Source of the DNA: an uncultured candidate division Zixibacteria bacterium
Lineage (GTDB): Bacteria > Zixibacteria > MSB-5A5 > GN15 > FEB-12
Direction of reading: 5' to 3'
Length of the DNA: 64,000 nt
NCBI GenBank assembly: GCA_963735035.1
Contig: CAVTJJ010000003.1
Span: forward strand, 288,001 to 352,000
This document shows positions 693 through 59,060 of the stretch, one piece after another. The stretch's first letter is position 1. Each line of letters opens with the position of its first letter. A program made the position numbers and the translations under genes. The notes under the pieces are model-generated. The model saw only the letters and a program-made list of their open reading frames with translations, was not told where the DNA came from and did not search any database.

Positions 693-701
693 ACATCTGC
701 T

Positions 702-1436: not shown

Positions 1437-3984
1437 CCGTTTCCTCTTCAGGCTCAACGACGTCGTCCGCCGACTTGCGGCGACGATCCATAAAGATACA
1501 ACCTGCAATTATACCTAACAGCGGCAGAATCGTCAACAAGGTAACCGTCTTGCCGAGCGCGTACCGGCTCGAGTGGTACTCAAAGCGCACTTCGCGGCTC
1601 CCTGCCGGGATTTCCACGGCCCGGAAGGCGCCGTAGGCGCGAAGGCAGTTGACCGGCTTGCCATCGACCGTCACCTGCCAAGACGGGAACCAGGTATCGG
1701 TCAGTACCAGAATGGCATTCTGAGCTGCATTTACTCCGACCGTTACGGTTTCGGGCTGATAGTCGATGATCCAGGCAGAATCGGTGGGGTTCTCAGCAGT
1801 TGGCATTGACAGAGTCGGCTGATCTTCGAGCAGGACGGTGTGTCGCATATCGCTACGACCGCTGATCACCTCGTTGACCATCTGCTTGCGGTCGGTTACG
1901 ACTATATACTTGTCGACCAGAAAGACCCGTGGAAAGGCGTTGTCGTTGCGGATCAGCCTCTCGTTGCCATAAGAGGTGGCCGTCACCAGAGGTATCGGTC
2001 CAAAATGATTAGGCGGAATATCCTGGTCCGTAGGATTGATCAGATACTTCGTCCCGGTCAGGTTTAGCAGGCGGGGGTTGAAAGTATATATGTTATCCAG
2101 ATTCGGTCCGCCCAAGAGGTCATCGTACCAGCGAAGTTGATTGCCGTGATACCCTACAGTGGCATCAATGCCATGGACAGGGAAATCTGCTTCCTTGACA
2201 TCCGCCACATTTATGACCCGAAACCTCTCCTTCTGGCCGGTCAGAAAACGCGTCAGCGGGGTTTCATTGTACCTCGACGCAAACTCACGCGGATCGACAA
2301 TCCGGATGAAACGGCTGTCGAACCGGACACCGTCGATAACAGGCAGCGCTATGAGTGCGATCATGATGCCCGCGCCCATTTTCCCTTCGCGATAGAGCCA
2401 GAGGAAAAACGCGGCCAGCGCCACGAAGAAAAACGCTATCCAGGCACCCGATTGAATTGCCGGCAAGTTCATATTGGCGACGTCCAGCTTGGTGACTCCT
2501 CGCTGTACCAGTTGGGTCGACGCCTCGCTGTAGAAGATCGTGCACCAGAGCTTGATCATGCCCTGCCCGGCCACCGAGAAACAGATTGCGAGAAGCAATA
2601 TGAACGACGGGAAACCAAACAGAACGTAGTTGGCTTTATTGCCGATCAGTTTCTTCCCCTCGTCGCGCCAGTCGAATAAGCTCTGTACGCCCATCCCGGC
2701 CAGGAGCGCCACTGAGAACGAGCCGAGGAACATGATCATCGACGCCCCCCGCATCGACTTGACCATGGGGACTATAGCGTACATCAACCGGAAGAACGGT
2801 GTCGTTCCCCCCATCCCGTAGAAGATAGCGAATATTGTCAACCCTCCGAAGAACCAGGCTTCCTTTCTATTCCTGTAGAAGAACAGCCCGACTATCGCCA
2901 GATACAGGGCGACTGTCCCAAGCCATTCGGAATTGTCTTTGAAGGCGTTCTTACCCCAATAGTAAGTTTTGGCCTTCTCGGTCGAAGTTCCGGAGAACTC
3001 CGGGATGACCAGCGAAGCCACTTCTTCCTGGTGCAACGACCACGAGGTTGCCCAGTCCCACCCTCTCTTGGTGTCAGCGCGAGGTGAATATTGCTGCGTG
3101 TAGCTAATACCAGGATACATCTGGATGGCAGATATCATCAGCCCAATCACGACTGCGTAGACTACAAACAACCCCGGCTTAATGGCGGGCAAAATCGATT
3201 TCTTCTGCACCCAGATATTGATCAACTTGAACGCGGAATAGAAACTTAGTCCCCAGAGCGCGAAATACGACATCTGCGGGTGCGGTGTGAGCAGGATGAA
3301 ACCGATGGTTAGCCCGGTCAGAGAGAAATATTTCAGGCGACCGATGAGATGTTCTTTCTCGAAGCCTCGATCGAGGAAATACATCATCAAGGGGAAAAGC
3401 GCTATGACGTAGATCTTCCCGTCGTGTCCGGGGGTGACCATCGAAACGAAATACCCCGCGAACATATAACATGCGCCTGCGACCAGCGCCGATATCCGCC
3501 GAAGTTTGAACTGTCGCGCCGCGCGGTACATGAAGATGCCGGCGATGTAGATGTGCAGGATCATCAGCCAGCCGAGATCGCGGGCGATATTGATCGGCTC
3601 GATCTTATCGTCGAACCAGACCCGCATGTACTTCACGAACAGACTGGGCGGATAGAAAATGTCGCTGTGGAACGCCTCGACAAACGGCATCCCGGCGAAC
3701 TGGTGCGGCATCCATTGAGGAATCGCGCCCCCGTGCGCCGCCATGTAGGTCGCCTGGTAGATGCGAAACATCAGGCTCGACGCCAGAACGTCGGAGCTGT
3801 ACATCATCTGGTTCGAGAAAATAAAATCGGAAAACAGGAACACCATCGCCAGGAAGAGCGCCACAAACACCACCGGCACAAACCAGCGGCTGTTTTCCAG
3901 GTTGAGGGCTTGTCTTCGGGGGCGGGCGGAAGAGTGTTTTTGCTGACCCACAGTATCTCCAGAGAAAACCGGATTATTTGCCAA
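1423..3984 (-). CDS. YfhO-family multi-pass membrane protein (putative GT-C glycosyltransferase)
   Basis: Many TM helices; N-terminal W.P..F.G.P motif; C-terminal NAFPRVF...LVLTDTWFPSWQVTVDG...FRAVEIPAG typical of YfhO; start may be slightly downstream. Confidence 0.85.
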   Translation of the reverse strand: MANNPVFSGDTVGQQKHSSARPRRQALNLENSRWFVPVVFVALFLAMVFLFSDFIFSNQMMYSSDVLASSLMFRIYQATYMAAHGGAIPQWMPHQFAGMPFVEAFHSDIFYPPSLFVKYMRVWFDDKIEPINIARDLGWLMILHIYIAGIFMYRAARQFKLRRISALVAGACYMFAGYFVSMVTPGHDGKIYVIALFPLMMYFLDRGFEKEHLIGRLKYFSLTGLTIGFILLTPHPQMSYFALWGLSFYSAFKLINIWVQKKSILPAIKPGLFVVYAVVIGLMISAIQMYPGISYTQQYSPRADTKRGWDWATSWSLHQEEVASLVIPEFSGTSTEKAKTYYWGKNAFKDNSEWLGTVALYLAIVGLFFYRNRKEAWFFGGLTIFAIFYGMGGTTPFFRLMYAIVPMVKSMRGASMIMFLGSFSVALLAGMGVQSLFDWRDEGKKLIGNKANYVLFGFPSFILLLAICFSVAGQGMIKLWCTIFYSEASTQLVQRGVTKLDVANMNLPAIQSGAWIAFFFVALAAFFLWLYREGKMGAGIMIALIALPVIDGVRFDSRFIRIVDPREFASRYNETPLTRFLTGQKERFRVINVADVKEADFPVHGIDATVGYHGNQLRWYDDLLGGPNLDNIYTFNPRLLNLTGTKYLINPTDQDIPPNHFGPIPLVTATSYGNERLIRNDNAFPRVFLVDKYIVVTDRKQMVNEVISGRSDMRHTVLLEDQPTLSMPTAENPTDSAWIIDYQPETVTVGVNAAQNAILVLTDTWFPSWQVTVDGKPVNCLRAYGAFRAVEIPAGSREVRFEYHSSRYALGKTVTLLTILPLLGIIAGCIFMDRRRKSADDVVEPEEETDDRG

Positions 3985-4894
3985 TCACAAGGGCGATCAG
4001 AGCGGCCAGGGCGTCGATCACCACCGACCACAACCGGGCGACTATAGCAAGTGCCGGGGCGATCGGCCCCACAAACGGCGCTAATAACGCACCCATAATC
4101 AATTCGCGCGGGCCCAGGCCGCCGGGAGCAAACAGCGCCAGATAACCGATCTGATACGCGATATTATACAAACCGATGGCCAACACAAGCGATGGCGCTT
4201 TGTCGCCAAGAACCGACAAAAGAAACAGCCAGAAGGCCACGCCGAACAAAATCCAGCCCGCAGAATAGCCGATAAACGCTTGCAGGGCAACCGATTTGTC
4301 GAGCGAGAATTCGGCCGTCGGGCGACCCAGTTTCTTTAGAAGGGCGTTGGCCGCACGCAGAAACGGCTTCGGATAAAACACCAGAATGGCGCAGCCAATC
4401 AGTCCAAGCGCGCCCGCCGTATAGGCCGATCCGGGCCCCATGATCTTGAACTTTTCGATGAGCAACTGAGGCTCAAACAGGGCGGCGATCACCCATACCA
4501 GAAGCGACGACGGTATCGTAAAGAGCTGGTAAATGACAAACGACGCCGTCGCCTGCTCCTCGGGAATCCCCTTCTGTTTGGCGTAGTAGAGCATCCCGAA
4601 AACTTGCCAGATCTTGCCGGGGACATAGCGTCCGAGGTTGGAAAGGTTCAGGATACGAAACCCGGCCGTCTGGCTCAGGTCGTGGCCAAACGCCGAAATG
4701 ACCCGCACCCAGGCGGCGGAGAAGACCAACAGCGCCACCATAGCGCAGATGATTGACAGGAGCATGTAGCCGTAGTTGAAATGCCAGTCGAAATTCTTGA
4801 TTTGGTCCCAGTTGCTCCAGACCTGAAGGCCGACGTAGTAGAGCACGACGAGAGTGAGAATCAGCTTGAAGGTGAAGATGGCGGCTTTTTTCAT
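3974..4894 (-). CDS. Lysylphosphatidylglycerol synthase TM-domain / flippase-like protein (UPF0104)
   Basis: LGRYVPGKIW and APGGLGPRE motifs; about 8 TM segments. Confidence 0.85.
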   Translation of the reverse strand: MKKAAIFTFKLILTLVVLYYVGLQVWSNWDQIKNFDWHFNYGYMLLSIICAMVALLVFSAAWVRVISAFGHDLSQTAGFRILNLSNLGRYVPGKIWQVFGMLYYAKQKGIPEEQATASFVIYQLFTIPSSLLVWVIAALFEPQLLIEKFKIMGPGSAYTAGALGLIGCAILVFYPKPFLRAANALLKKLGRPTAEFSLDKSVALQAFIGYSAGWILFGVAFWLFLLSVLGDKAPSLVLAIGLYNIAYQIGYLALFAPGGLGPRELIMGALLAPFVGPIAPALAIVARLWSVVIDALAALIALVIGK

Positions 4895-4990
4895 CGCAGG
4901 GTATGGTACCCCAAGCGGGGCGCGGGTTCAACTAGAAAAGATGGGGGGCTTTCGCCAGGGAGGAAGCCAAATACGATCGGTATCTTAAGA

Positions 4991-5052
4991 GTGATCGGCA
5001 GGGTTCCACCCCTGCCGGAAACAGAACGGCAGGCACGGAGGCCTGCCGATCA
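4991..5052. repeat. Inverted pair of REP-like palindromes (family B, CGGCAGGG-N-CCCTGCCG)
   Basis: gtgatcggcagggttccacccctgccgg ... cggcaggcacggaggcctgccgatca; related copies at 6138, 39224, 40621, 57799, 57963. Confidence 0.8.
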
Positions 5053-5062
5053 GGAAGCTGCG

Positions 5063-6016
5063 CTATTTCTTGTTGAGTTGCTCCAGAATCGCGTTGGATT
5101 TGCGACGAAGGTCCGAGATCTCTTCCTTCAAAGCCGTCACACCCTCGGAAATAAACCCCATCAGGAAGAAACTCGTGCCGACCCCTATCAAGAGCATGAC
5201 CAGGTACAACCAGGTCCGGTTGCCGTGCATCATGACGAAACGTTCGTAGATCGCCCACAGGCCGACTATCACGCCGAGCAGAACGAAGATCAGGCCGGTA
5301 ATTCCGAAAAACAGAAGCGGTTTGCGAAGAAACGTAATCTGGAACTTGACCGCCATCATGTCGAGCACACCAACAGGAATCCGCCAGACCGAAAACTTGG
5401 TCTTCCCCCACGAACGCGGGTAGAGTTTGACCTTGACCTCTTCGACACTGAACCCCTCGTTGGCCGCCAGCGGCACGAGATAACGATGCCAGTCGCGACG
5501 GAGAAAGATGCTTTCGACAACCACCCGCCGAAACGCTTTCACCGAATTCAGGTCGTGAACATCCAGCCCGAATATTTTCCGCGAGAACCAGTTGTAGATC
5601 GATGACACAAACCGCTTGGCGTATTTTCCCTGTTTCCAGCCGGTGCATATATCAGCCCCGTCGGCAATCGGCGCCACCAAGGCCGGGATGTCTTCGGGAA
5701 GATACTGCAGATCGGCCGGGTAAAAGACGTACACCTCGCCGGTCGCCTTCGCGAACCCGGTTTGAAGTGCTTCGGTCAGGCCGCGATTGCGCTGGTGTGA
5801 CGCCCATCGGATGAAACCGTATTTCTGCGCGTTGGCCTTGATCTTGTCGAGCGTGCCGTCGGTGGAGCCGTCGTCGACAAACACCAGTTCGCCTTTGAAG
5901 GGGGCCTTCTTGAGCATCTCGTCGTAAAGACGGCAGAATTCATCGATATTCCCTTCCTCGTTGAGGGCGGGAATGATGGTCGAAACGGTAAAGTCGTATT
6001 TGGGATCAAGGGCCAT
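5063..6016 (-). CDS. GT2 undecaprenyl-phosphate glycosyltransferase (ArnC/GtrB-like)
   Basis: IPALNEE, FVDDGSTDGT, ADLQY motifs plus two C-terminal TM helices. Confidence 0.85.
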   Translation of the reverse strand: MALDPKYDFTVSTIIPALNEEGNIDEFCRLYDEMLKKAPFKGELVFVDDGSTDGTLDKIKANAQKYGFIRWASHQRNRGLTEALQTGFAKATGEVYVFYPADLQYLPEDIPALVAPIADGADICTGWKQGKYAKRFVSSIYNWFSRKIFGLDVHDLNSVKAFRRVVVESIFLRRDWHRYLVPLAANEGFSVEEVKVKLYPRSWGKTKFSVWRIPVGVLDMMAVKFQITFLRKPLLFFGITGLIFVLLGVIVGLWAIYERFVMMHGNRTWLYLVMLLIGVGTSFFLMGFISEGVTALKEEISDLRRKSNAILEQLNKK

Positions 6017-6224: not shown

Positions 6225-6256
6225 ACGCACAACGGCTCCAGCTTTGAGCGTCCCAG

Positions 6257-6874
6257 TTACCGGTTATTCAGCGAGGCCCAGATGTACCAGCAGGCGACCG
6301 TACGGTACGGCCGGAATCGTTCGCCGAACTCCTCAAAATCGGTATCGTTACGATCGACCCCGTAGAGGTTGCAGATCCCCTTCTGAATGCCGAGATCACC
6401 AGCCGCGAAAATGTCAAGCCGCCCCAGCGTGAACATCAGATACATCTGCGCGCTCCACGGCCCCAGACCCTTGACCTGAGTGATGGTTTCGGCGATTTCT
6501 TCGTCGGTCATGCGGGGGAAGCGGCGCACGTTTAAGAAGCCGGAATCGATCTTCTCGATCAGGTCACGAACGGCCCGGATCTTGGCAAAGGACAAACCGG
6601 CTTCGCGGAATGAGGCGTCGTCGAGCTTGCGAAATGCTGTGATCGATGCCGTCCTGCACCCGGCCGCTCGGCATACTTTCTTGTAGATGGCGTCCGCTAC
6701 GGTGCCGGAGAGTTGCTGTCCGACGATGATTCTGACGAAGGCATTGAACCCGATTTGTTGTTTATGGTAGTCGAGGCGGCCAACCTGTTTGATGACGGCG
6801 GCCAGTTTCTTGTCGGTCTTTTTGAGGTGGGCGATGGCCAGGTCGATTTCGCGCTTGCGGTCGGTGGTAGTCAT
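6257..6874 (-). CDS. alkA: DNA-3-methyladenine glycosylase II (AlkA/HhH-GPD family)
   Basis: IVGQQLS, HhH motif VKGLGPWSA, catalytic GDLGI, RPYRT. Confidence 0.85.
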   Translation of the reverse strand: MTTTDRKREIDLAIAHLKKTDKKLAAVIKQVGRLDYHKQQIGFNAFVRIIVGQQLSGTVADAIYKKVCRAAGCRTASITAFRKLDDASFREAGLSFAKIRAVRDLIEKIDSGFLNVRRFPRMTDEEIAETITQVKGLGPWSAQMYLMFTLGRLDIFAAGDLGIQKGICNLYGVDRNDTDFEEFGERFRPYRTVACWYIWASLNNR

Positions 6875-32738: not shown

Positions 32739-33848
32739 TCAGCGATGCGATGCATTCTTATAGAACGGCGGCTTTACTACCTTGGCCGCAAAACGCTTGT
32801 CTCGAATGGCAATTTCCACGGTGCTGCCGATCTTGGATTTCTCGGTGGTGACATACCCCATCGCGATCGGTATCTGCAGCGACGGCGAGAACGTCCCCGA
32901 TGTTACATGGCCGATCTTTGCGGCCCCGTCGAAAATATCGAAACCGTGCCGGGGGACATTGCGTCCTTCCATCTCCAGACAGACCAGGCGGCGTTTCGGC
33001 TTTTCTTCTTTCTGACGGGCGATTACCGGCTTGCCAATGAAATCCTTGTCGGTATCGACAATCCAGCCGAGGCTGGCTTCAATCGGCGTGGTGGTCTGGT
33101 CAATGTCGTTGCCATAAAGGGCCATCTTCATTTCCAAACGAAGCGTGTCGCGCGCTCCGAGACCAATGTATTCCATGCCCAGCTTCTTGCCGGCTTTGTT
33201 GACCGCGTCCCACAAGGCCTCACAATGTTTGGGCGGGATGTACATCTCGAAACCGTCCTCACCGGTATATCCGGTGCGGGAAAAGAAAAGCTCGATTCCA
33301 GCCACTTTGGCCGTGGCGTGATGATAGTACGGGATCGAATCGAGATTGTAGTCGGTCAGAGCACTCATCACTTTCTGAGCGTTAGGGCCCTGAATCGCCA
33401 GCAAGCCGTAGTCGTCGGAACGGTTCACGAAATCGACTTTGCCGCTCAGATGTGATTTCAGCCAGTCGAAGTCCTTCTGGATATTGGAGGCATTGACGAC
33501 TAGAAAGAAGCTCTGCTCGCCGGTGCGATAGACCAGGAGGTCATCGACAATACCGCCTTCGGCGTACGGCATGCAATTGTACTGGATCTGGCCGATCTTG
33601 AGACTGGCGACATTATTGGTGGTGGTCTTCTGCAGGAACGCCAGGGCGTCGGGACCTGAGACGGTGAACTCGCCCATGTGTGACAGGTCGAAGAGGCCGA
33701 CATTTTGGCGGACGGCCAGGTGCTCGACCTGTATCCCTTTGTACTGCACCGGCATAAGAAAACCGGCGAAGTCTACTACTTTGGCGCCGGCATCAACATG
33801 ATACTGATAGAAGGGGGTTTTTACTGCGGGTTGGTTACTATGGCTCAT
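32739..33848 (-). CDS. gcvT: Glycine cleavage system aminomethyltransferase T
   Basis: FDLSHMG, SRTGYTGEDGFE, GLGARDTLRLE, VTSGTFSPSL. Confidence 0.97.
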   Translation of the reverse strand: MSHSNQPAVKTPFYQYHVDAGAKVVDFAGFLMPVQYKGIQVEHLAVRQNVGLFDLSHMGEFTVSGPDALAFLQKTTTNNVASLKIGQIQYNCMPYAEGGIVDDLLVYRTGEQSFFLVVNASNIQKDFDWLKSHLSGKVDFVNRSDDYGLLAIQGPNAQKVMSALTDYNLDSIPYYHHATAKVAGIELFFSRTGYTGEDGFEMYIPPKHCEALWDAVNKAGKKLGMEYIGLGARDTLRLEMKMALYGNDIDQTTTPIEASLGWIVDTDKDFIGKPVIARQKEEKPKRRLVCLEMEGRNVPRHGFDIFDGAAKIGHVTSGTFSPSLQIPIAMGYVTTEKSKIGSTVEIAIRDKRFAAKVVKPPFYKNASHR

Positions 33849-33972
33849 ATCTATTATCTACCGTAGGTTAGGTTCGTTATTCTCGCCTAATAAACGGCGC
33901 AACCGAGCCAAGTCAATAGCTATGTCCCGACGGCGTGACTTCTTACGGTACAACGATTTGAGCGAACGTCCC

Positions 33973-34251
33973 TTACCCTCGCGTCAGGTGCAATGCGATT
34001 GCTACCAATGCGAACACCAGTGCGGCATTGATTGAGATAAGCCAGTGATAGTAAAGCGGTCCGGTTCGGCCGGTCTCTTCGCGAGTGATCTTCCGGTAGC
34101 GGTGGGCATAAATGGGCGCCATTACGCGCAGCCAAATGAAACTGACCGAGACTCCGCGACGGCGAAACCAGTCGTAGATCCTGATGCTGATAAACACGTT
34201 CCAGAAGACACAGGCTACGGCCAGTACCAAATAGACGACGGCGAGCGACAT
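33973..34251 (-). CDS. Small hypothetical membrane protein
   Basis: ATG at 34251 with AGGAGG RBS; two to three hydrophobic segments. Confidence 0.7.
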   Translation of the reverse strand: MSLAVVYLVLAVACVFWNVFISIRIYDWFRRRGVSVSFIWLRVMAPIYAHRYRKITREETGRTGPLYYHWLISINAALVFALVAIALHLTRG

Positions 34252-34307
34252 AGGAAACCTCCTTCTTCTAAAGAGAGGTACTACCTTTATCGGGTGTTTA
34301 TTCGGAC

Positions 34308-34493
34308 GTAGGTCGGGCGGATTTGACGCCCGACATAAACGTGCCCGGCAGATGCCTACATATGCCTGCAAGAAAGTGGAGCAGTCTTCCTTGTCGGTAG
34401 CGGCGAGAAACCGACACTTTGACGGTGTGACAAAACCCCCCTTGGGTATGGTACCGAAGATAGCGTGTCAGGCGTCAAGTCCGCCTGACCTAC
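34308..34493. repeat. REP cluster: inverted pair of GTAG-type REPs around a degenerate family A copy
   Basis: gtaggtcgggcggatttgacgcccgaca ... tgtcaggcgtcaagtccgcctgacctac; near-identical to 63743-63770. Confidence 0.82.
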
Positions 34494-35014
34494 GCGTCGC
34501 CTGATATCATACAATTGATGTACGGCACGAAATGCCCCACATACCGCGCTTGAAGATCAGCCCGTCGCCAATCGTCCCCGGTGATTCGATGACGACACAG
34601 TGGCGAGCCGCATCGACACGGATCGAGTGACCACGACGGGTCGCACTCCCAGAGGGCATAATCGACCGTGAGTTCTTCGCCGGGGGCGATATCGCAGCGC
34701 GCGGTCAACGTTATCTCGTCGCGCATCCATAGATTGGGGTCACAGGAATGGTTGATGTGATAGTCTACGGCTGTAGTTGTGTCGGGCGGATCGGCGAGAT
34801 AAAGCCCTTCGGCGAGAACCGAAATTGTGCCCGGCTTCGCCTTACCGGCCTTGATTTCGGCCTTGGAGTAAACCGTCCCGCCCCACTTGAGGACGACTTC
34901 GCCCTTCGCAATCGCCCTGACCGCGAACATCCCGCGTCCGTGAGTATCCGATTCACGAACGACCGCCTTGCGGCTGATCCAGGGTTCGAGTATTTGACCG
35001 GGGGTGAATATCAT
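34490..35014 (-). CDS. SET domain protein (putative lysine methyltransferase) with post-SET motif
   Basis: HGRGMFA, INHSCDPN, GEELTVDY, CRCGSPLCR. Confidence 0.92.
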   Translation of the reverse strand: MIFTPGQILEPWISRKAVVRESDTHGRGMFAVRAIAKGEVVLKWGGTVYSKAEIKAGKAKPGTISVLAEGLYLADPPDTTTAVDYHINHSCDPNLWMRDEITLTARCDIAPGEELTVDYALWECDPSWSLDPCRCGSPLCRHRITGDDWRRADLQARYVGHFVPYINCMISGDA

Positions 35015-35202
35015 CTTGTGGGCGGCAGGCGTCCTCGCCTGCCCCTTTCTATCTGCCTGACCCGTGGCTGGGTGTCAACTTTGTATCTAGCGAAGACAAT
35101 AAACAATTCCCCGACTGTTGACGTCAATATCCAAAGGCCCGAGAAAATAAGTAGACAACGGAAGTAAGAATGACATCTAGTACTTCCAAGGAGTTACAAC
35201 AT

Positions 35203-37259
35203 ATGGAGAAGAGAACTGCAATCATCGTGATGTGCTTAGTTCTTCAAAGTTTCACCCAACTGTTTGCTCAAGAATCATCGAAACAACAGGACAAATTGAT
35301 TCCGGAGTCGGCGGCGTATATGGGACAAACGCCGCCCGGGGACTCCGCAATCGTGTTTGCTCCCGACATTATCTCTACGGATAGCATTTTTGTAGGGACG
35401 TCGACATTCTCCCAAGACGGTCGGGAGTTCTATTTCGCCGTTACCAACAACAGGTGGGATCATTTTGAAATCTGGTCCACAAAATTCATAGACGGCAAAT
35501 GGTCGATCCCTGCCAAAGACGCTTTCCTGGACGATTCGCTCCAACTTGATGAATTGGAACCGTTCATTGCACCTGACGGCAATCGCATCTATTTCAATGC
35601 CGGTAATGCCGCCAATACGGATATCTGGTATTGCGAGAGAATGGGCACAGCCTGGGGGAAACCTACAAAATTGTCTGATATGATCAACACTTCAGATCTC
35701 GAGTGGTATCCCACAATATCCGGGAAGAATACTCTGTATATTGCGAGGAACGGTGACATATATCGTTCCACTTTTCAAGATGGGCAGTTTCAACAAGGCG
35801 GAAAAGACTCGATTGCCCGGTGAATTCAACCGACGGCGATGGGGATCCTTTCATATCACCGAATGAAGACTATCTGATATTTCAATCTCATCGTTCGGGG
35901 GGCTTTGGGCAGGCTGATTTGTACATCAGCTACAAGAAAGAAGATGGCTCCTGGACCAATCCCAGGAATCTCGGGCCAAAGATTAACACGAGTGAGTTTG
36001 AGAATGCTCCTTCGGTGACACAGGACGGCAAGTATCTCATGTTTACACGAAGAGAACAATGGCTGACGGAAAAACCATCGAAGATATGCTGGGTTTCCTC
36101 AGACTTTATAGTGCGCCTCAAGCACACGAATTGTGTTCCCTATGCGTGCAAACAAGTGAAGAATCAAACGTGCGTAGTTGGGCAGCCATTCAGCATTGTT
36201 ATTCCCGACGATACATTCATCGATGATGACGGTTACAACACCTTGACTTATTCGGCCGTGCTCGCCAATGGTGGCCAATTGCCTTCGTGGATAAGCTTCA
36301 ATCAGAAGTCCGTCACATTATCGGGCACACCGACCCAGGTAGGGATGGTTAGTATAAAGATCATCGCTACCGACACTGCCGGAGCGGCTGCTTCAACAAC
36401 ATTCTTACTGTCGGCGACCGATATGGCGGCCAAGCCCCAGCCCAAAGGAGTTTACTTCGGTCAGAGCTTGCCGGGAGAATTACCGGTGCTTTTCGCGCCT
36501 GAGATTCTTAACTCGGTCAGTGCGTGGGTGGAAGCCACGGGTTTCTCTCCGGATGGGACTCACTTCCTCATGGCGGTGGGTGACGCATCTTATTCAAGTA
36601 CGAGACTCTACTATTCGAGATGTGTTGACAGCGTATGGACGCCCTTTGTCGACGCCCCTTTCATCTCGGATTTTACCTTTTCACACGAACCCCACTTTGC
36701 GAAGAACGGCACCACTCTCACATTCACCGGAAAGAGTGCGACCGGGTCGCAGGATCTCTGGATGGTTCCCTATCGAGACACAATTTGGGGCCAGCCCATT
36801 GCGCTGCCGTCACCGATCAACAGTGACGCCAAAGAATGGCGCGGTAGCAGCACGTTGGATGGCATCGTATACTTCGGCTCGGATCGTGCCAAACCCGGAA
36901 TGAACCAATTGTACAAGGCCTACCGGGATTCCAGCCAACAGTGGGTTGCCGAGCAACTGGGGGCGCCCATCAATATGAATTCTTACGAAGGCGATCCCTG
37001 TGTTGCTCCGGATGGACGTTTCCTCATTTTCTATTCAGCTCGCGGTGGCATCAGTTCCGATCTATACGTGTGCTTCAGTGACGGCAACGGAGGATGGAGT
37101 GAACCCATTCTTCTTGGACCTGATTTCAATACTGCGAGCGACGAGTATGGCGCGCATCTGTCCTCTGATGGGAAGTATCTTTTCTTTACGCGCCACACTT
37201 TGAAGGGGAATAGTATTTTCTGGGTTGCAACTTCGGCGATTGATAAGCTTAAGAAGTAG
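35203..37259 (+). CDS. Secreted PD40 (TolB-like beta-propeller) protein with a central putative Ig domain, frameshifted near 35800
   Basis: Signal peptide; repeated FS.DG / P.I.PDG..L.F units; LPSWISFN...LSGTPT Ig-like motif; ORFs 35170..35823 and 35820..37259 join if extra bases in ggcggaaaag are removed. Confidence 0.78.
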
Positions 37260-37289
37260 TTCCGATTTCGTAGCGGTCTGCAATTTCAC

Positions 37290-37317
37290 GTGCCCGGCAG
37301 ATGCCCACATCTGCCGG
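37290..37317. repeat. Family A REP between convergent genes
   Basis: gtgcccggcagatgcccacatctgccgg. Confidence 0.8.
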
Positions 37318-37380
37318 CGAATCAACAACGTCGAAACCCCGCCGCAGCGGGCAGGCAGAGGGGTTTCAGCCTATGACGAC

Positions 37381-39117
37381 TCAAGGAATTGGGTTTTCAG
37401 GCCGTACGGATGTCTTCACAGAACCAGCCCTTCGCGCGCGACGAACAAGCCCTCGTCGAAGGTATAGACCTATGAGCAGCCCTGCCACCAGTCCGCCTAC
37501 ATGCGCAGAGTTGTCAATCCAGGGAGTGACGGCACCGAGCACGAGAGTCAGTACCACGCTTGGTGCAATGTAGAAAGCATATCGGGTCTGATCAACAAGC
37601 CGTCTGTGCCTCGGGATGGACAGACTGAATAGAACACCGAACATTCCAAAGATCCCGCCAGACGCTCCTATCGCCATAGAATCTGCATGGCACAAGAGAC
37701 TGACAATGCCGGCAATCAACCCCGTCACCAAGAATGAAAGAACAAACTTGCGCCACTTCAAGAGCCGTTCCAGAGAGAGACCAGCCAGAACAATCCCAAA
37801 GAGATTATTGATCAGGTGAGGGAAACTACCGTGAAGGAACATCGCCGTGATAAGCCTCCACCATTCCCCGGACAGAATCGCCTGGCGATTACAGGCTCCC
37901 CACTCAATAAGTGGATCCGAGTCAGAGAAACCGGCATAGAAGCCAGATGCTGTCTGAGCTCCGAAAATGGCAATGATGAGCCATATGAGAAGAGGAGTGG
38001 CGACGTAATCTCCCTGCAAGAACATAAAACTAACTGCATCTCTAATGTCACTGTCCTTAGATGACCTCCCCTGCCGCACACTCTTCAACTCCTCTTCATC
38101 CACGAGCGGCACCATAACCATGGCAAGCCAGATCAGTGCACCTCCAGCGAAAGTTCCTATCAGCCACACAAGAGAACGCCCTGTTCTGGATTCATATGGA
38201 TTGTCGAGAGGAATCAAAATAATCGGATCACCGCTTTCTTCGACAATTCCGCTCCTTAGAACGGCGTCCTTGAATCCATCCAAGTCCGCACAAGGCCCTA
38301 TTCTCTCGAAGAGAGGGATTGCTCTAATGTCCTTTTGGAGAATATCCTTGTAGGATTGGTGAACTAATTTGTTATAAGCGACGTTCTGGGCGGAGTCTGA
38401 AAGCAACCGACTCACCTCTTTCCTATACTTCAGGCCAAGCCATACCATGCTTGTAGTCGGGTTTGCCGACAAGCAAGAGTCTGACAGAGGCATCGCAAAG
38501 TATAAAGACAGTTCAAGTCTGTTTCCCATCCTCCCCATCAACTTGGTTCGCAGCGACAAACCCCAGTTGGTAGTGTCAATTTCCAGGTCGTCTACGGTGT
38601 AGTACTTAGAATTCTCAGCCGCGGCAATACCGCTGATATGGTTTAGGTGCGTGAGACGGCCTGTTGCAGTAGTCATATATTGCTGAGCAATTATGACTGG
38701 CACAGACAAAACTATCGTTGCAGCCATCAAGAAACCAAAATGTGGATCATTATAATTGGATTTGGAGACAAATTTGAGCACTCCGACTTTGGGTCTCAGC
38801 CAGAACAGGACAATCGCTACTGTCAGAATCAGAGGCAGCCAAAACTGTAGAATATTCTTGTCCAGCGTAATCAGTCTTGTTTGGATGACAAAGAACCAAT
38901 GGGCCAGGGTGTACAGGACCACTAATGTTACCAACACGAACAGAAACGGAAGGTATATGACTTCCATCTTCTCCCGGAATGCGCCCCGGCGGATGCGTCG
39001 TCCCTTTTCTGCCGAGGCTTTCTTCTTGGGGCTTCTTGATTTCTTGCTGTCGTCGTGAGTTCCGGCTACTCCCATGCTGGAATGATAGCTCCCCGATTGG
39101 GTTTCGTCAATCAACAA
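37381..39117 (-). CDS. Rhomboid-family intramembrane serine protease with a long N-terminal extension (start uncertain)
   Basis: EWWRLITAMFLH, HLINN, catalytic GASG, DNSAHVGG. Confidence 0.88.
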   Translation of the reverse strand: MLIDETQSGSYHSSMGVAGTHDDSKKSRSPKKKASAEKGRRIRRGAFREKMEVIYLPFLFVLVTLVVLYTLAHWFFVIQTRLITLDKNILQFWLPLILTVAIVLFWLRPKVGVLKFVSKSNYNDPHFGFLMAATIVLSVPVIIAQQYMTTATGRLTHLNHISGIAAAENSKYYTVDDLEIDTTNWGLSLRTKLMGRMGNRLELSLYFAMPLSDSCLSANPTTSMVWLGLKYRKEVSRLLSDSAQNVAYNKLVHQSYKDILQKDIRAIPLFERIGPCADLDGFKDAVLRSGIVEESGDPIILIPLDNPYESRTGRSLVWLIGTFAGGALIWLAMVMVPLVDEEELKSVRQGRSSKDSDIRDAVSFMFLQGDYVATPLLIWLIIAIFGAQTASGFYAGFSDSDPLIEWGACNRQAILSGEWWRLITAMFLHGSFPHLINNLFGIVLAGLSLERLLKWRKFVLSFLVTGLIAGIVSLLCHADSMAIGASGGIFGMFGVLFSLSIPRHRRLVDQTRYAFYIAPSVVLTLVLGAVTPWIDNSAHVGGLVAGLLIGLYLRRGLVRRARRAGSVKTSVRPENPIP

Positions 39118-39137
39118 GTCACACCAGGCGAATATGG

Positions 39138-39284
39138 CCCCCGATAGAGTCGGGAGCAGACATCAGCCGGGCACGCTGACATCATCCACCAACCCACAGC
39201 AAGCTGTGGGGTGCCAATTGATACGGCAGGGATGGAACCCTGCCGATCACGAAACCTACCACCCTTCGACAAGCTCAGGGTGAC
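39138..39284. repeat. Composite REP cluster (families A, D CCCACAGCAAGCTGTGGG, B, C CCCTTCGACAAGCTCAGGGTGAC)
   Basis: Four different palindromes in tandem; 39224-39270 is identical to 40621-40667. Confidence 0.85.
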
Positions 39285-39303
39285 TTGCGCGACGATCCGG
39301 TGG

Positions 39304-40443
39304 TCACCGTTCGGTAATCTTGATATTCTCCGGCGGCAGAAATAGACTATAGTCGAAACCTAGACCGGATTGGTAATCGTCGTAAACGACGGTGACCCAC
39401 GAACCGTCCGGTCCTTTTCTAGTGACCTCATAAAGCAACCCTGTCTTCTTGTTGATATACAAGTGCAGCAGCCAGTAATACCGGGGTAGCTCATACGCCT
39501 CGCACCACACTCCGTCCACCAGTTGATCGGCAAGCCTTCGGGCACCGTGGTAGGCAAAGAAGGCTTGTTCCCGGCCGAATTCGAGCGGCTTCAATCCATC
39601 GTCCTTCCACTCGTTGAACACCGGGCAGACGGTATTGAAGGTGGGACCAGGGTCGAGAGAATGCCTACCGATTTTGTCGAAGAGATTGATCAGCCACATA
39701 TTCGGCTCGTTCATGACTGTGAGTTTGTGCACGTTTGTGGCCGGATTGGGCGGTTCCTCAGCCCGAGCATACTTCTCGCCCGCCCTCCAAATTGTAGTGG
39801 GTTGCGCCTTCACAGAGTTGATCTCGATGTGAGGTGAGACATATCGATAAGTGATCTTAACCATCTTCGCGGTGTCGCTCAGGAGGCCGAGCGGCGCTCC
39901 GCCGAGCGATTCGTCGGGCGCGAACACACGTGCATGCTTGAATATGTCCATCCACTTCAGCATATTCGTTCCGAACGTTTTCCGATCCTTGGCAGAGTAC
40001 CAGAACGAATGAACAAATTGCCTGCCTACTATGAATCCAAACAGCATGTACTCAGGTTTGGCCTGTGCCTTACAGTTTTCAGGATTCCAACTGCAAATGA
40101 TAAGGCTGTCGCTCGTGAAAAGGACCTTCCAGATTCCTTCCGGGCATGTCTTTATGGCGTTATCGCGGTGGTGGTCCCGGGCGAATTCAACGACGCCGGG
40201 TGAACGATAGACCGGGAACGACATAGTGGAAACGAGTTCGGTCCAGTTTTCGATATCTTCTCCCCTGAGAATGTACTCTACAAGGCCCTGCTCCCGATCG
40301 GCGTAACAAGAGGCCGCTATCCACTCGCGACCATCGAAATCCACAACGACGCGTTCGTCTAAGAACTCACCGTATGATGATGTGGCTGCTACGAAGAGTG
40401 TTGCCACGATCATTACAGCCAGATTCAGTCGGTGCACGCGCAT
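39304..40443 (-). CDS. Hypothetical secreted protein
   Basis: ATG at 40443 with AGGAGG RBS; N-terminal signal-like segment; long open frame; no family recognised. Confidence 0.7.
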   Translation of the reverse strand: MRVHRLNLAVMIVATLFVAATSSYGEFLDERVVVDFDGREWIAASCYADREQGLVEYILRGEDIENWTELVSTMSFPVYRSPGVVEFARDHHRDNAIKTCPEGIWKVLFTSDSLIICSWNPENCKAQAKPEYMLFGFIVGRQFVHSFWYSAKDRKTFGTNMLKWMDIFKHARVFAPDESLGGAPLGLLSDTAKMVKITYRYVSPHIEINSVKAQPTTIWRAGEKYARAEEPPNPATNVHKLTVMNEPNMWLINLFDKIGRHSLDPGPTFNTVCPVFNEWKDDGLKPLEFGREQAFFAYHGARRLADQLVDGVWCEAYELPRYYWLLHLYINKKTGLLYEVTRKGPDGSWVTVVYDDYQSGLGFDYSLFLPPENIKITER

Positions 40444-40546
40444 CTTTCCTCCTGTTGTATCTAACTCAAAGTAATGTCTGAACATTCAACGATAACGCAA
40501 GGACGATTCGAGCCCGACTTGGCGGATCGGGCACGTTTCGGTTTCA

Positions 40547-40706
40547 CGTTTCGACAGGCTCAGGGCGACTTACGGCTATCACACCCGGCAGATGTGGACA
40601 TCTGCCGGGCACTTGTCAAGCGGCAGGGATGGAACCCTGCCGATCACGAAACCTACCACCCTTCGACCCTTCGACAAGCTCAGGGCAGGCTTAGCTCAGG
40701 GTGACT
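40547..40706. repeat. Composite REP cluster (C, A, B, and C nested in C)
   Basis: ttcgacaggctcagggcgac; cccggcagatgtggacatctgccgggcac; cggcagggatggaaccctgccg; cccttcgac[ccttcgacaagctcagggcaggctt]agctcagggtgac. Confidence 0.85.
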
Positions 40707-40712
40707 TATGTC

Positions 40713-41744
40713 CTACTTCCCGAACAGCGACTTGCCGTCGGACTTCAGGTCCTTGCAGGCCTGCGCCACCCGCTCCGACATCCCCTTCTCAGCCGCCTTC
40801 AAATACGCCCGAGGATCAAACTTCTTCTTGTCCGCCATCTTCTCCGCCGAATGCGTCAGGTCTTTCTGGTTCTCGATCATGTGCTTGAGAATCGGCTGCG
40901 TGAAATGATACTGCGTGTCCGTGTCGACATTCATCTTCACCACGCCGTACTCAAGCGTCTCATGAATGTCCGCCAGCTCCGAGCCCGACCCGCCGTGGAA
41001 GACCAGATCGAACCGCGCCTGGTCACCGAACTTCTTCTTCAGCGCATCCTGGCCGTCGCGAAGGATTTTCGGCTTGAGCACCACATTCCCCGGCTTGTAG
41101 ATGCCGTGAACATTGCCGAACGTCGCGGCGACCATGTAGCGACCGCCCACCGGCTTGAGCGCTTCGTACACTTTCACCATGTCTTCCGGCGTCGTGTAGA
41201 GCTTCTCTTTGCCGACCGACGTGTTGTCGAGACCGTCTTCTTCGCCACCAACCACACCGATTTCGACTTCGAGAATTATGTCAACCTCTTTGCACGCCTT
41301 GAGAAGATCGACCGCCATCTTCATGTTCTCGCCGATAGCGAGCTCGGACCCGTCGAACATGTGCGACTGGAACAGAGTGTTCTGCCCGGCGGCGTGCAGC
41401 GCGGCGGACGCCTCGATCAGCGGCTTGACAAACGCATCCCACTTCTTCGGCACGCAATGGTCGGTGTGCATGGCTACGAAGATCTTGTAGTGCTCGGCCA
41501 TCCGATGCACATGCTCGGCGATAGACATCGCCCCCTCGGCCATGTTCTTGACATTGAGCCCCGACGCAAACTCGCCACCGCCGGTCGAGACCTGGATGAT
41601 CCCGTCGGAACCGGAATCGGCGAATCCTTTCAGCGCGGCGTTGGCGGTTTCGGTCGAGGTGACGTTGATCGCCGGGAAGGCGTAGTGTTTCGCCTTCGCG
41701 ACGTCAAGCATCTGGCGGTATATTTCAGGTGTTGCTACCGGCAT
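40713..41744 (-). CDS. fbaA: Class II fructose-bisphosphate aldolase
   Basis: HTDHC, SHMFDGS, FGNVHGIYKPG, VFHGGSG, KMNVDTD. Confidence 0.95.
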   Translation of the reverse strand: MPVATPEIYRQMLDVAKAKHYAFPAINVTSTETANAALKGFADSGSDGIIQVSTGGGEFASGLNVKNMAEGAMSIAEHVHRMAEHYKIFVAMHTDHCVPKKWDAFVKPLIEASAALHAAGQNTLFQSHMFDGSELAIGENMKMAVDLLKACKEVDIILEVEIGVVGGEEDGLDNTSVGKEKLYTTPEDMVKVYEALKPVGGRYMVAATFGNVHGIYKPGNVVLKPKILRDGQDALKKKFGDQARFDLVFHGGSGSELADIHETLEYGVVKMNVDTDTQYHFTQPILKHMIENQKDLTHSAEKMADKKKFDPRAYLKAAEKGMSERVAQACKDLKSDGKSLFGK

Positions 41745-41792
41745 AATTTAGTCTCCATCCGTCTATCAAAAATCCGTTTAGTATTCATATCC

Positions 41793-44468
41793 CTATGACT
41801 TGGCCAACTGGCGAAGGACCATCTGAAGAATCCCGCCATGGCGATAATATTCGACTTCGATCTTGGTATCTATGCGCGCTTTCATCTGGAACTTTAGCTC
41901 GCCGTCGCCGCCGAGCGCCCGGACCGTCACCATCTGGCCCGGCTTCATGTTGTTCGAGAGGCCTTCGATCGTGAACAACTCGTCCCCTTTGAGGCCGAGC
42001 GATTCCCTCGACTCACCTTTGACGAACTCCAATGGAAGCACGCCCATGCCCACCAGATTGGAGCGGTGAATTCGTTCGTAGCTTTGCGCCAGAACCGCTC
42101 TTACTCCGAGCAGCATCGTGCCCTTGGCGGCCCAGTCACGCGACGAGCCCATGCCGTAGTCTTTACCGGCAATGATAACGAGCGGCGTTTCTTTCTCGGC
42201 GTAGTGCATGGCCGCATCGTAAATCGACATGGTTTTCCCATTCGGGAAGAATCTGGTGACGCCACCTTCGGTGCCCGGTACAAGCTGATTGCGAAGGCGG
42301 ATGTTGGCAAACGTGCCGCGCGTCATGATGCGGTCATTGCCGCGCCGCGAGCCGTACGAGTTGAAATCGGCGAACTGGACGCCGTGTTTGAGAAGATACG
42401 TTCCCGCCGGAGAATCGGCCTTGATCGAACCGGCCGGAGAGATGTGATCAGTCGTCACTGAATCGCCCAGCGACGCCAGACAGACGGCGTCGCGGATCGG
42501 CTGCACGTCGCCCGGATCCTTCTTCATCCCAACAAAGAAGGGCGGGTGCTGGATGTAAGTCGACTTGTCATCCCATGAATAGATTTCGCCAGTGGGTGAC
42601 TTGATCGCATTCCAGACCGCGTTGGCATTGAATACCGAGGCATATTCTTTAGCGAACAGCTCGCCCGTGACGTTCTTGCTGACCACATCCATGACTTCTT
42701 TTTCGCTCGGCCAGATATCTTTGAGGAAGATCGCCTCGCCTTTGTCGTTCGTCCCGAGAGGTTCAGTAGTCAGATCGATGTCTATCGTTCCGGCGAGTGC
42801 AAACGCCACGACGAGCGGCGGTGACGCCAGGTAATTAGCTTTTGTGTTCGGGCTGACACGTCCCTCGAAGTTCCGGTTACCGGAAAGCACCGCGGCCGCG
42901 ACCACATTCCCCTGATTGATCGCCTGAACGACTTCGTCCGGAAGCGGTCCGGAGTTGCCAATGCAGGTGGTACAACCGTAGCCGACGTTATTGAACCCGA
43001 GCCTCTTGAGCGGTTCGATCAGGCCGGCCTTCTCCAGATAGGCGGTGACCACTCTCGATCCGGGAGCCAGCGAGGTCTTAACGTACGGCTTGGTCTTCAA
43101 CCCGAGAGCAACCGCCTTCTTGGCCATCAAGCCCGCGGCGACCAGCACGAATGGATCGGACGTATTCGTACATGACGTAATCGCCGCGATGACTACGGCG
43201 CCGTGATGGATCTCGGCTTTGTAGCCATCGTTGATAACACCTTTGTCGTCGAGTGCTCCGGCGGCCAGTTCGTAGCCACGATCTTTGATCGGCTTGGTCA
43301 GGCTGGCTTCGAAATCGGTCTTGATCGTTGTGAGCGACACGCGATCCTGAGGCCGTTTCGGACCGGCCAGCGACGGTTCAACTTTCGAGAGGTCGAGTTC
43401 GAGGGTCGAGGCAAACTTCGGCGCCGCCGAACCTTTGTCGCGGAACAACCCCTGTTCCTTGCAGTAACGTTCGACAAGTTCCACTTCGTCGGGTGTACGT
43501 CCGGTCATCTTAAGATACGCCAATGTGCCGTTATCTACCGGGAAATAGCCCATCGTCGCGCCGTACTCGGGAGCCATGTTGGCGACCATCGCCTTGGTCG
43601 GGAGAGAAATCTCGTCCAGGGCCGGACCGAAGAATTCGACAAACTTCCCCACCACGCCGTGCTTGCGCAGCATCTGTGTGACAGTCAGCACGAGATCGGT
43701 GCCAGTAACGCCTTCGGAGAGTTTCCCGGTCAGTTTGAATCCGACCACTTCCGGCATGAGCATGTACAGCGGCTGGCCAAGCATACAGGCTTCGGCTTCA
43801 ATTCCGCCCACGCCCCAGCCGACCACGCCGAGACCGTTGATCATTACTGTGTGGCTGTCGGTGCCGACCAGAGTATCCGGGTATGCCACGCCGTCGTTGG
43901 TCCAGACTACTTTAGCGAGGTATTCCAGGTTGACCTGATGGCATATCCCGGTGGCAGGCGGGACGACCCGGAAATTGGCGAACGACTTCTGTCCCCAGTG
44001 AAGAAACTCATACCGCTCCCGATTGCGCTCAAACTCTTTTTCCATGTTGAGGCGAAGGGAATCGTCCGACCCGAACGAATCGACCTGCACTGAGTGGTCG
44101 ATGACCAGATCCACCGGCACGAGCGGGTTGATCTTCTTCGGGTCACCCTTCATGGTTTTCATCGCGGTTCGCAGGGCAGCCAGATCAACTACCGCCGGGA
44201 CGCCGGTGAAATCCTGAAGGAGTACGCGGGCCGGTTTGAAGGGGATCGTAATTTCCGATACTTTGGTCGGGTTGTAACCGGTCGCCGCGATGACATCGTC
44301 CTCGGTGATTATTTTTCCATCGACATTGCGCAGCAACGCTTCGAGAAGTATGCGTATCGAGTACGGCAACTGGTCTATGTGACCGTGTTTCGAGAGGCTG
44401 GACAGCTTATAAAAGGAATATTTACCTGCTTTGGTGCTGAGACTGGCTTTGGCATTGAACGGATCCAT
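41793..44468 (-). CDS. acnA: Aconitate hydratase A
   Basis: [57 protein letters not shown]. Confidence 0.98.
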
Positions 44469-57986: not shown

Positions 57987-58020
57987 TAAATTGACTGCTC
58001 ACACCCTTGGGTGCCCCCCT

Positions 58021-59048
58021 AAGTTCACAAACGAAGTGCAACACCTGTTAAAGGTGTTGTCATGGAACGAAGATATGCACAGATCAATCTTGAAGAGCGG
58101 TGTGAGATTGCCCGCTTACACACCAACGGGCGGTCGCTCCGGCAAATCGCGGCAGCTCTGGATCGCGCGCCATCGACCATTGCTCGGGAGATAAGGCGAA
58201 ATCGCAGCCGACAAAGCGGTTACCTGCCCGCCTATGCCAACGACCAGAGCCGTGCCCGGCGTTGGACCGGCTCCAAATTGGATCGCCGTCCAGAACTGCG
58301 CGACATGGTAGTGATGGGACTAGCTAATGGTTTGTCTCCGGAGTTGGTCGCGGGAAGGCTGGCCGTGGAGATGGGCCGGAAGGTGATTTCCTACGAAACG
58401 ATCTACCGGTTTATCTACGCGCAGATCGCCCGTACTAAGGATTACACTTGGCGGTACTTACTGATCCGTGGCCGAGCCAGACGTAGCTGGCGAGGGTGCA
58501 AGAGAGGTCGGTCGACGTCGTCTATAGCCCTGCGGTGCCCTATCTCCGCGCGGCCGAAGAGCGCCAAGAGCCGGAAAACACCAGGACACTGGGAAGGTGA
58601 TCTCATGAACTTCCGAAAACCCGATCAGAGCGTCCTCGTCCTTCATGAGCGACACTCACGCCTGATGATGGGGGTTAAGCTACCCGCCAAAGATGCCGCC
58701 TCGGTTGCTAAGGCCATGTGCACTCTCCTGGCACCCTTGCCGCCCGCCTGGCGACAGACCATCACCTTCGATAACGGTCCCGAGTTCGGCCAGCACTACC
58801 GACTCCATGACCACGACATCGAGACCTACTTCTGTAACACCTACTCACCCTGGCAGAAAGGCGGCGTCGAAAATGGAATCGGTCGCCTCCGACGCCGACT
58901 CCCTCGGTCAACCGACTTGACCAAACTCTCGCCGAGACGGTTCGCAGACTTCTTTCAAATCTACAATAACACGCCTCGAAAATGCCTGGACTTCCTCACT
59001 CCAGCAGAGTTCTTTTGGCTCGAACTGTTGCACTTCAAATGTGAATCC
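58021..59048 (+). mobile_element. IS30-family insertion sequence
   Basis: Imperfect inverted repeats TTCACAAACGAAGTGCAACA (58024-58043) and TGTTGCACTTCAAATGTGAA (59026-59045) around the transposase; the exact left end may extend to ~57990. Confidence 0.85.
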
Positions 59049-59060
59049 AGCCCCGCCTGA
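58062..59060 (+). CDS. IS30-family DDE transposase
   Basis: HTH SLRQIAAALDRAPSTIAREIRRN; GHWEGD, ITFDNGPEF, SPWQKGGVEN, NNTPRKCLDFLTPAE. Confidence 0.95.
   Translation: MERRYAQINLEERCEIARLHTNGRSLRQIAAALDRAPSTIAREIRRNRSRQSGYLPAYANDQSRARRWTGSKLDRRPELRDMVVMGLANGLSPELVAGRLAVEMGRKVISYETIYRFIYAQIARTKDYTWRYLLIRGRARRSWRGCKRGRSTSSIALRCPISARPKSAKSRKTPGHWEGDLMNFRKPDQSVLVLHERHSRLMMGVKLPAKDAASVAKAMCTLLAPLPPAWRQTITFDNGPEFGQHYRLHDHDIETYFCNTYSPWQKGGVENGIGRLRRRLPRSTDLTKLSPRRFADFFQIYNNTPRKCLDFLTPAEFFWLELLHFKCESSPA

Follow-up and report, generated by a model that had tools for sequence, protein, structure and literature searches.

Direct duplication of a hairpin composite on both sides of an exported-protein gene in an uncultured Zixibacteria genome

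Tandem clusters of REPINs in Pseudomonas fluorescens SBW25 have been described as near-identical units that were duplicated locally together with flanking non-repeat sequence, and the same article infers a second cluster-forming mechanism, separate from transposition, and places RAYT genes within clusters of repetitive extragenic palindromes (REPs) (Bertels and Rainey 2011, PMC3116915). Here, we analysed a window of 64,000 nucleotides (positions 288001-352000 of contig C3) from the genome of an uncultured candidate division Zixibacteria bacterium, in which a gene for an exported protein is bracketed by two identical 47-nucleotide direct repeats, each composed of a hairpin (B), a short spacer and the first half of a second hairpin (C). 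The gene lies in a slot between a gcvT-like aminomethyltransferase gene and the gene for a class II fructose-bisphosphate aldolase (FBA). The repeat pair is a real and young structural feature and represents one example of a recurrent local process; it is no evidence of a new mobile cassette system.

As in the SBW25 clusters (PMC3116915), a REP unit was duplicated locally together with its flank. The units described there are arranged head to tail within one intergenic region at short separation, whereas the two copies reported here occupy neighbouring intergenic regions on either side of a 1.35-kb gene, and, unlike the REPIN units, the duplicated unit joins two different hairpin families. By analogy with that description, the present case would be a gene-spanning variant of REPIN cluster duplication (PMC3116915). 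A second parallel is found in Neisseria, where NIME/dRS3 arrays lie on both sides of pilC1 and identical dRS3 repeats have been proposed as a site of integration or deletion (Schoen et al. 2009, PMC3898611); the same article gives a definition of minimal mobile elements. Both systems, as far as that article describes the Neisseria one, have a variable gene between conserved genes, intergenic repeat arrays on both sides, small identical repeats, and slot occupants that differ between genomes in the absence of a dedicated mobility gene. The dRS3 repeat is a target of a phage integrase, whereas no such enzyme lies near the Zixibacteria site; Neisseria is naturally transformable, whereas the lineage studied here is uncultured; and, unlike pilC1 in its slot, the bracketed gene is the conserved slot occupant. 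Strain-specific genes of Pseudomonas have been reported to lie preferentially in REP deserts (PMC3390384), and the REP-rich flanks at our locus are accordingly consistent with a long-resident gene, or with one from a donor that carries the same repeats.

Integron attC cassettes resemble the locus in that imperfect palindromes in direct orientation delimit individual genes. Unlike in integrons, the hairpins are dispersed throughout the genome (96 to 194 copies per family) instead of forming one array, no tyrosine recombinase is encoded on contig C3, and the genes of the slot run in both orientations. REP-mediated tandem duplications have reportedly been described in enterobacteria, where REP hairpins likewise serve as join points of direct-orientation local rearrangements; the enterobacterial duplications are said to comprise whole segments, whereas only a piece of 47-63 nucleotides is still duplicated here.

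Structure and copy number of the composite repeat

A repeat search of the window demonstrated that positions 39224-39270 and 40621-40667 are identical at 47 of 47 nucleotides in direct orientation, in agreement with the preliminary description of this DNA. Based on the sequence, the repeat search and the genome count, in the left composite hairpin B with its GATCA tail (39224-39249) is followed by CGAAACCTA as the spacer (39250-39258) and, at 39259-39270, by the 5' half of hairpin C, and the right one comprises B at 40621-40646, the spacer at 40647-40655 and the 5' half of C at 40656-40667, all on the plus strand. The identity begins exactly at the first base of B, reaches 10-12 nucleotides into C and ends where a short and a long form of C diverge. 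Both sides had also been said to continue into shared sequence, and the 15-mer AGCTCAGGGTGACTT was indeed found further along on each of them (39272-39286 and 40693-40707). Each copy is located just 3' of a minus-strand gene.

The genome (3.61 Mb in 6 contigs, G+C 0.555) contains the 47-mer exactly twice, so that it is not a common genome-wide unit; the 16-mer GATCACGAAACCTACC likewise occurs twice and the left 63-mer once. Among 31 genomes of the family, a 32-nucleotide junction pattern allowing up to three mismatches was present in this genome alone, in two copies, and the exact 26-nucleotide junction had no match in public genome contigs or in public metagenome contigs. The preliminary description had regarded ATCACGAAACCTACCA as a unique spacer. 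Approximately nine nucleotides of it (CGAAACCTA) are truly unique, whereas ATCA belongs to the conserved GATCA tail of B and CCA to the stem of C. An identical spacer of 9-11 nucleotides would arise by chance with a probability of about 4^-9 to 4^-11 for each pair. Among the 96 copies of B, direct succession by a C hairpin (within 70 nucleotides) is confined to this locus and a single further site, where the spacing differs. Because the spacer is identical, exactly two copies exist and the adjacency of B to C is nearly absent elsewhere, the two 47-mers are a duplication of one composite site and not two independent repeat insertions, as had been proposed from the spacer.

Hairpin B (CGGCAGGGATGGAACCCTGCC followed by the conserved GATCA tail) is present in 18 exact copies and in 96 copies at up to three mismatches, which are dispersed and mostly intergenic. 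Its predicted fold, an 8-bp stem with a 6-nucleotide loop, was the same in all four folds computed. Together with a second hairpin (E), B crowds round a gene for a Y1 (IS200-like) transposase (C3 433734-434381); the Y1_Tnp gene at C3 433887-434264 lies within a B/E cluster (C3 433463-434702). Since B and E cluster round this gene and the genome contains six Y1_Tnp genes, B appears to be a RAYT-type REP: it forms a stable hairpin palindrome, its copies are dispersed, and a Y1 gene is flanked by the same repeat. The Y1 (RAYT-like) gene in this dense cluster (C3 433463-434771) is itself bracketed by an exact direct repeat of 87 nucleotides, and the spacers of E-B doublets elsewhere in the genome vary strongly in length and sequence.

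The stem-loop of hairpin C can be written (G)TCACCCT-TCGACAAGCTC-AGGGTGAC(TT), and its 16-mer core has 61 matches at up to two mismatches. On the left, C is present in the short form (CCACCCT TCGACAAGCTC AGGGTGACTT; 39259..39286, plus strand), ending 17 nucleotides from the stop codon of the bracketed gene. On the right, it is present in the long form (CACCCTTCGAC-CCTTCGrCAAGCTCAGGGCAGGC.TAGCTCAGGGTGAC; 40656..40707, plus strand), ending 5 nucleotides from the stop codon of the aldolase gene. The two forms differ by two indels (8 and 16 nucleotides) or by a 25-for-1 exchange, and not by one clean insertion. An extra C element had been thought to be nested in the right copy; as the long form recurs at at least eight other sites, this is a variant of the family and not a local event.

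Further hairpins, all on the plus strand, surround the composites. Hairpin D (49 copies; 39193..39215) lies 8 nucleotides upstream of the left B, with half of an A element beside it (39150-39174), and hairpin A (a 194-copy family; 40586..40612) lies 8 nucleotides upstream of the right B, preceded by a diverged C-like hairpin (40543..40571) in the upstream region of the bracketed gene. Single A hairpins are all that the other intergenic regions of the slot share with these two flanks. Positions 33000-42000 gave no Rfam match at E values up to 0.1, and a consensus terminator scan detected no terminator-like site at the composites.

Content of the slot and a proposed local copying event

The bracketed gene (39304..40443, minus strand) encodes 379 amino acids from an ATG at 40443 preceded by AGGAGGA, the longest open reading frame (ORF) extending to 40485. 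Its best homologue is encoded on a metagenome contig of a relative (L031) and is 51% identical at the amino acid level to the bracketed gene and 97% identical to P0002. The gene order on that contig is aconitase, aldolase (79-84% amino acid identity), insertion sequence (IS) transposase, a methyltransferase-like ORF, the homologue, a small membrane protein (63% identical to the product of window positions 33985-34251) and gcvT (74%). Judged by the aldolase (about 82% identity to our genome, compared to 88% for the congener G002), the relative is roughly as distant as a member of the same genus.

As the best homologue occupies the same slot between FBA and gcvT in L031, the bracketed gene would be an old resident, and it and the small membrane protein gene appear to be shared, old slot content. 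The relative holds the gene family in the slot without the repeats of our genome. No alignable intergenic sequence was seen between L031 and our genome, so that a non-coding repeat with 47 of 47 identical positions would be far younger than the residence of the gene. On these comparisons, the 47-mer pair cannot have been left by the first arrival of the gene, except if the gene was acquired anew or conversion kept the flanks identical. The earlier proposal of an integration of the gene through recombination at a composite REP site is thus unsupported: L031 has the family in the same slot, no tyrosine recombinase is encoded on C3, and the G+C content of the gene is close to the genome mean.

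The slot itself is variable, and the descriptive part of the minimal mobile element definition given for Neisseria (PMC3898611) applies to it. It is empty in G004, a genome from another genus of the same family, in which the gcvT-like gene and the aldolase gene lie about 160 bp apart in a translated comparison, compared to 6.9 kb in our genome. In G002, which belongs to the same genus, it contains other genes: synteny is restricted to the sequence right of 40711, followed to the left by a DDE transposase fragment and a gene with a VTT domain. L031 carries the gene, the membrane protein gene, the IS and the methyltransferase-like ORF, and our genome carries the gene, the membrane protein gene and a block of SET, PD40 and rhomboid genes. 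In G002 (contig C21, L019), the transposase fragment comprises the 155 C-terminal amino acids (PF13751), lies directly downstream of the aldolase gene and is bracketed by direct repeats of a hairpin array of about 110 nucleotides with approximately 80% identity (L019 9557-9660 and 10097-10200). The homologue in L031 is bracketed by paralogous mini-ORFs of 31 and 32 amino acids (MQTLVWAIAFAAAFVLGWAFVRNRKKNTPGK and MQTVVWAIAFAVAFVLSWLFVRNRQKRSRPPK; 4751-4846 and 6238-6336), each with a GAGGA-type ribosome site, in a 142-nucleotide repeat of 75% identity; many of the differences look synonymous by eye, and the products look like conserved single-helix membrane peptides. A tandem array with a 20-nucleotide unit (aggggcaggggtgacgagag-like) lies beside the IS of L031 (3100-3270).

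We consider it about an even chance (probability roughly 0.5) that the 47-mer is a young, local and direct duplication of a piece of a REP array, generated by homology-anchored copying while the gene was already in place. Each of the two genes would already have had a C hairpin after its stop codon, and one homology-anchored event would then have placed a copy of the spacer plus B from beside one C next to the other, at a distance of 1.4 kb. Replication may have switched templates at stalled hairpins, a gap may have been repaired ectopically, or a 1.4-kb tandem duplication may have collapsed by recombination between the two C elements and left this scar. Local copying of this kind would account for the end of the identity inside C, for the presence of two C forms, for the rarity of B next to C and for the positions behind stop codons. 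It would likewise explain the direct orientation, the many duplications without a gene and the old residence of the gene.

Duplicated segments across the genome and alternative origins

A census was performed in this genome alone of exact repeats of at least 32 nucleotides that lie outside ORFs of at least 150 amino acids and occur in only two copies. The 183 direct pairs were separated by less than 300 nucleotides (37), by 300-6000 nucleotides (31), by 6-50 kb (3) or by more than 50 kb (34), or lay on different contigs (78); the respective numbers for the 122 inverted pairs were 0, 2, 5, 44 and 71. Distant pairs (more than 50 kb apart or on another contig) are balanced, with 112 direct versus 115 inverted, and among the local ones direct orientation prevails almost completely. 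Grouping of the 31 local direct segments yields 25 loci, 13 of which have an ORF of at least 120 amino acids between the copies (one is a tandem gene duplication and one a RAYT locus) and 12 of which have none. Many local unique pairs consist of one hairpin and a few flanking bases. The direct-orientation bias was also considered as proof of an insertional mechanism and rejected as such, since single hairpins of the same family at distances of 300-6000 nucleotides are already co-oriented in 65-82% of cases (A 72:39, B 45:10, E 49:12).

Six bracketed loci were compared with the genomes G001, G002 and G004. In five of them (this locus, L021, L024, L026 and L027), nothing corresponding to the bracketed gene is present at the site, and in the relatives the distance between the conserved flanks is smaller. 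In the sixth (L022), where the arrays resemble each other through a dispersed family of about 200 nucleotides, G002 retains one bracketed gene (SPFH) in place. That a gene is missing from these three genomes is no proof of a recent arrival, because L031 carries the gene in the slot. The strongest case of the census is a hairpin array of about 330 nucleotides with 99% identity between C3 212721-213051 and 215235-215566 (L021 4722-5052 and 7236-7567), which has no further copy in the genome, stops precisely where an A hairpin abutting the stop codon of a conserved gene ends, and brackets the gene for an exported beta-helix protein of 632 amino acids whose tail is dockerin-like; a different gene occupies this slot in G002. 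The region C3 591-596 kb was discarded as a clean test case, as its arrays share a member of a dispersed family of about 200 nucleotides. This multi-hairpin family (…GTCATGCCCGA..TCGGGCA.CCATGAC.ACTCGCG…; units of ~200-233 nucleotides) occurs in tandem arrays and dispersed, for example at C4 416880-417436, 429771-430216 and 512906-513333 and at C3 590700-596000.

Several points weigh against local copying next to a resident gene. We infer the copying event itself and did not observe it directly, and the left boundary coincides with the exact end of B, which also fits cleavage by a REP transposase. No match to the gene family was found in either genome of the same genus, G001 (77% complete) or G002 (100% complete). 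Replacement or re-acquisition of the gene in this lineage is possible, because it is 51% identical to its syntenic homologue in L031 and FBA about 82%. The lineage-specificity of the bracketed genes fits insertion as well, and the direct-orientation bias of the pairs is only partly informative and decides little alone.

The likeliest alternative, which we nevertheless consider improbable, is that the gene and its upstream region entered as a cassette by recombination at a composite REP site, the two 47-mers being the left and right joints. Such joints could stem from a circle that integrated by Campbell-type crossover, or from an insertion that duplicated a long target. Exactly two direct copies bracket one gene, as expected for attL and attR sites, and the gene is patchy, being matched in 6 of 40 related genomes besides our own and in neither congener. 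The variability of the slot, with gcvT and FBA adjacent in G004 and different content in G002, the transposase fragment between direct repeats at the same FBA-proximal place in G002, and the five of six bracketed loci in lineage-specific insertions would fit as well. The presence of the family without the repeats in the same slot of L031 speaks against such an insertion, because the gene then predates the fully identical non-coding repeat and would not be younger than its surroundings. A circle would already have needed the same unique spacer, which leaves the origin of the duplication unexplained, and the two C elements are of different family forms. No recombinase is found nearby: the genome contains three tyrosine recombinases (Phage_integrase family), none of them on C3. 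Moreover, 12 of the 25 comparable duplications bracket no gene, and at the homologues in four other genomes (G040, G028, G022 and G006) the only flanking direct repeats are weak matches of up to 29 nucleotides; the flanks of these homologues map elsewhere in our genome, in other contexts. Target-site duplications of transposons measure a few to about 15 bp. The repeat at our locus measures 47 nucleotides, there are no inverted terminal repeats at the inner borders, and the gene does not encode a transposase.

An allele with an empty site was not found in a comparison that covered relatives of other species and no reads spanning the site. Among public runs, only two soil runs yielded small shares (0.07 and 0.05). 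Their contigs match 39971-40339 at 96-98% identity and 40645-40816 without differences, leave most of the slot uncovered and include no joint or bridging piece at the repeats, so that they are uninformative on empty sites.

It is also improbable that a RAYT enzyme excised B plus the spacer as a short 3' tail and pasted it nearby beside another C, creating a two-member subfamily of B by a local hop. This would agree with the apparent RAYT type of B, which clusters with E round the Y1 gene at C3 433734-434381, with the six Y1_Tnp genes of the genome, with the start of the identity exactly at the first base of B and with the many other local unique pairs made up of one hairpin and a few flanking bases. 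This requires that each copy landed immediately 5' of a C, and the flanks of B show no target motif; the identity runs 10-12 nucleotides into C; and cutting by these enzymes is putative.

A broader and still more doubtful proposal is that unique REP composite duplications might be working joints of an integrase-free shuffling of genes in Zixibacteria, in which REP transposases or host recombination would act on flanking composites to loop out individual genes, which would then be re-inserted or lost, with slots of the gcvT/FBA type in flux. If this were the case, the 13 ORF-bracketing loci would be its current substrates.

An assembly artefact, in which the gene segment was threaded between copies of a truly single repeat in a chimeric metagenome-assembled genome (MAG), is very improbable: the genome is indeed a MAG of 6 contigs, but the usual final k-mers and reads are longer than a 47-nucleotide repeat, the contexts of the copies are different and coherent on both sides, a soil-run contig of 172 nucleotides (from an independent or the source run) matches 40645-40816 across the right junction with 0 differences, and the gene adjoins the FBA side in L031 too.

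Identical flanking repeats are easily misread as the scar of an insertion, and in this repeat-rich genome local pairs are frequent, whether a gene lies between them or not. As the bracketed gene now lies between 47-nucleotide direct repeats, these could mediate its deletion. If the pattern observed here (25 loci; 31 direct versus 2 inverted segments) holds in population data, a gene-spanning form would be added to the known tandem REP duplication, and REP arrays would be places where accessory genes of this uncultured phylum gain deletion-prone flanking repeats.

The exported protein and its neighbourhood

The preliminary label of an unknown secreted gene was a fair one. A signal peptide is predicted for the protein, no Pfam family matched it at E values up to 0.01, and its model shows two periplasmic-type folds; PF27161 is precomputed on two of its homologues. 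The gene is single-copy and has a G+C content of 0.51-0.545, near the 0.555 of the genome. In the AlphaFold model of the 379-aa product (pLDDT 78.7, pTM 0.78), residues 27-176 resemble PsbP, DcrB and Mog1 (Z 12-13) and residues 183-379 resemble LolA, RseB and VioE. For the latter domain, comparison with 4mxt yielded Z 13.2 and a root-mean-square deviation of 3.5 over 165 aligned residues, and Foldseek against LolA chains an E value of 3e-7; in the predicted model, the structural match to the LolA/RseB/VioE-like fold thus extends over most of the domain. The product is therefore described, on the basis of this model, as a probable exported two-domain envelope protein with a PsbP/DcrB-like and a LolA-like domain, a fold-level description that is a gain for annotation.

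A search of 5.8 billion proteins yielded seven relatives, the protein itself included, of which the best was 51% identical and one was named from a Zixibacteria MAG. Four full-length relatives were found in species-representative genomes, three in Zixibacteria MAGs and one in a genome labelled Ignavibacteriales, and the C-terminal half alone has relatives in several other phyla. The taxonomy of the best matches thus places the gene family mainly in Zixibacteria MAGs.

The slot is bordered on the right by the conserved FBA gene (40713..41744, minus strand) and on the left by the likewise conserved gcvT-like gene (32739..33848, minus strand), which was named from reading the sequence, without a family call. 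The small membrane protein gene (33973..34251, minus strand) adjoins the latter. Left of the bracketed gene, a block at approximately 34372..39117 comprises a SET gene, PD40 in two ORFs and a gene for a 578-aa protein with a rhomboid domain; Pfam matches of the neighbours were SET, PD40, rhomboid and aldolase. Parts of this block have a G+C content of 0.46-0.50, the slots of L031 and G004 lack it, and it is unmatched beside FBA in G002. Judging from these comparisons, the lineage-specific DNA of the slot appears to be this neighbouring block. The 578-aa rhomboid protein has weak domain-level matches in five relatives. The PD40/He_PIG beta-propeller is read as two ORFs (35170-35823 and 35820-37259) that overlap by 4 nucleotides (GTGA), which may reflect either a pair of coupled genes or a frame error in a single gene. 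Further to the right, the window contains a multi-copy IS (58017-59054, C3 346017-347054), whose transposase of about 346 amino acids is 64% identical to that of L031 and which is present in at least nine near-full copies on contigs C3, C4, C5 and C6.

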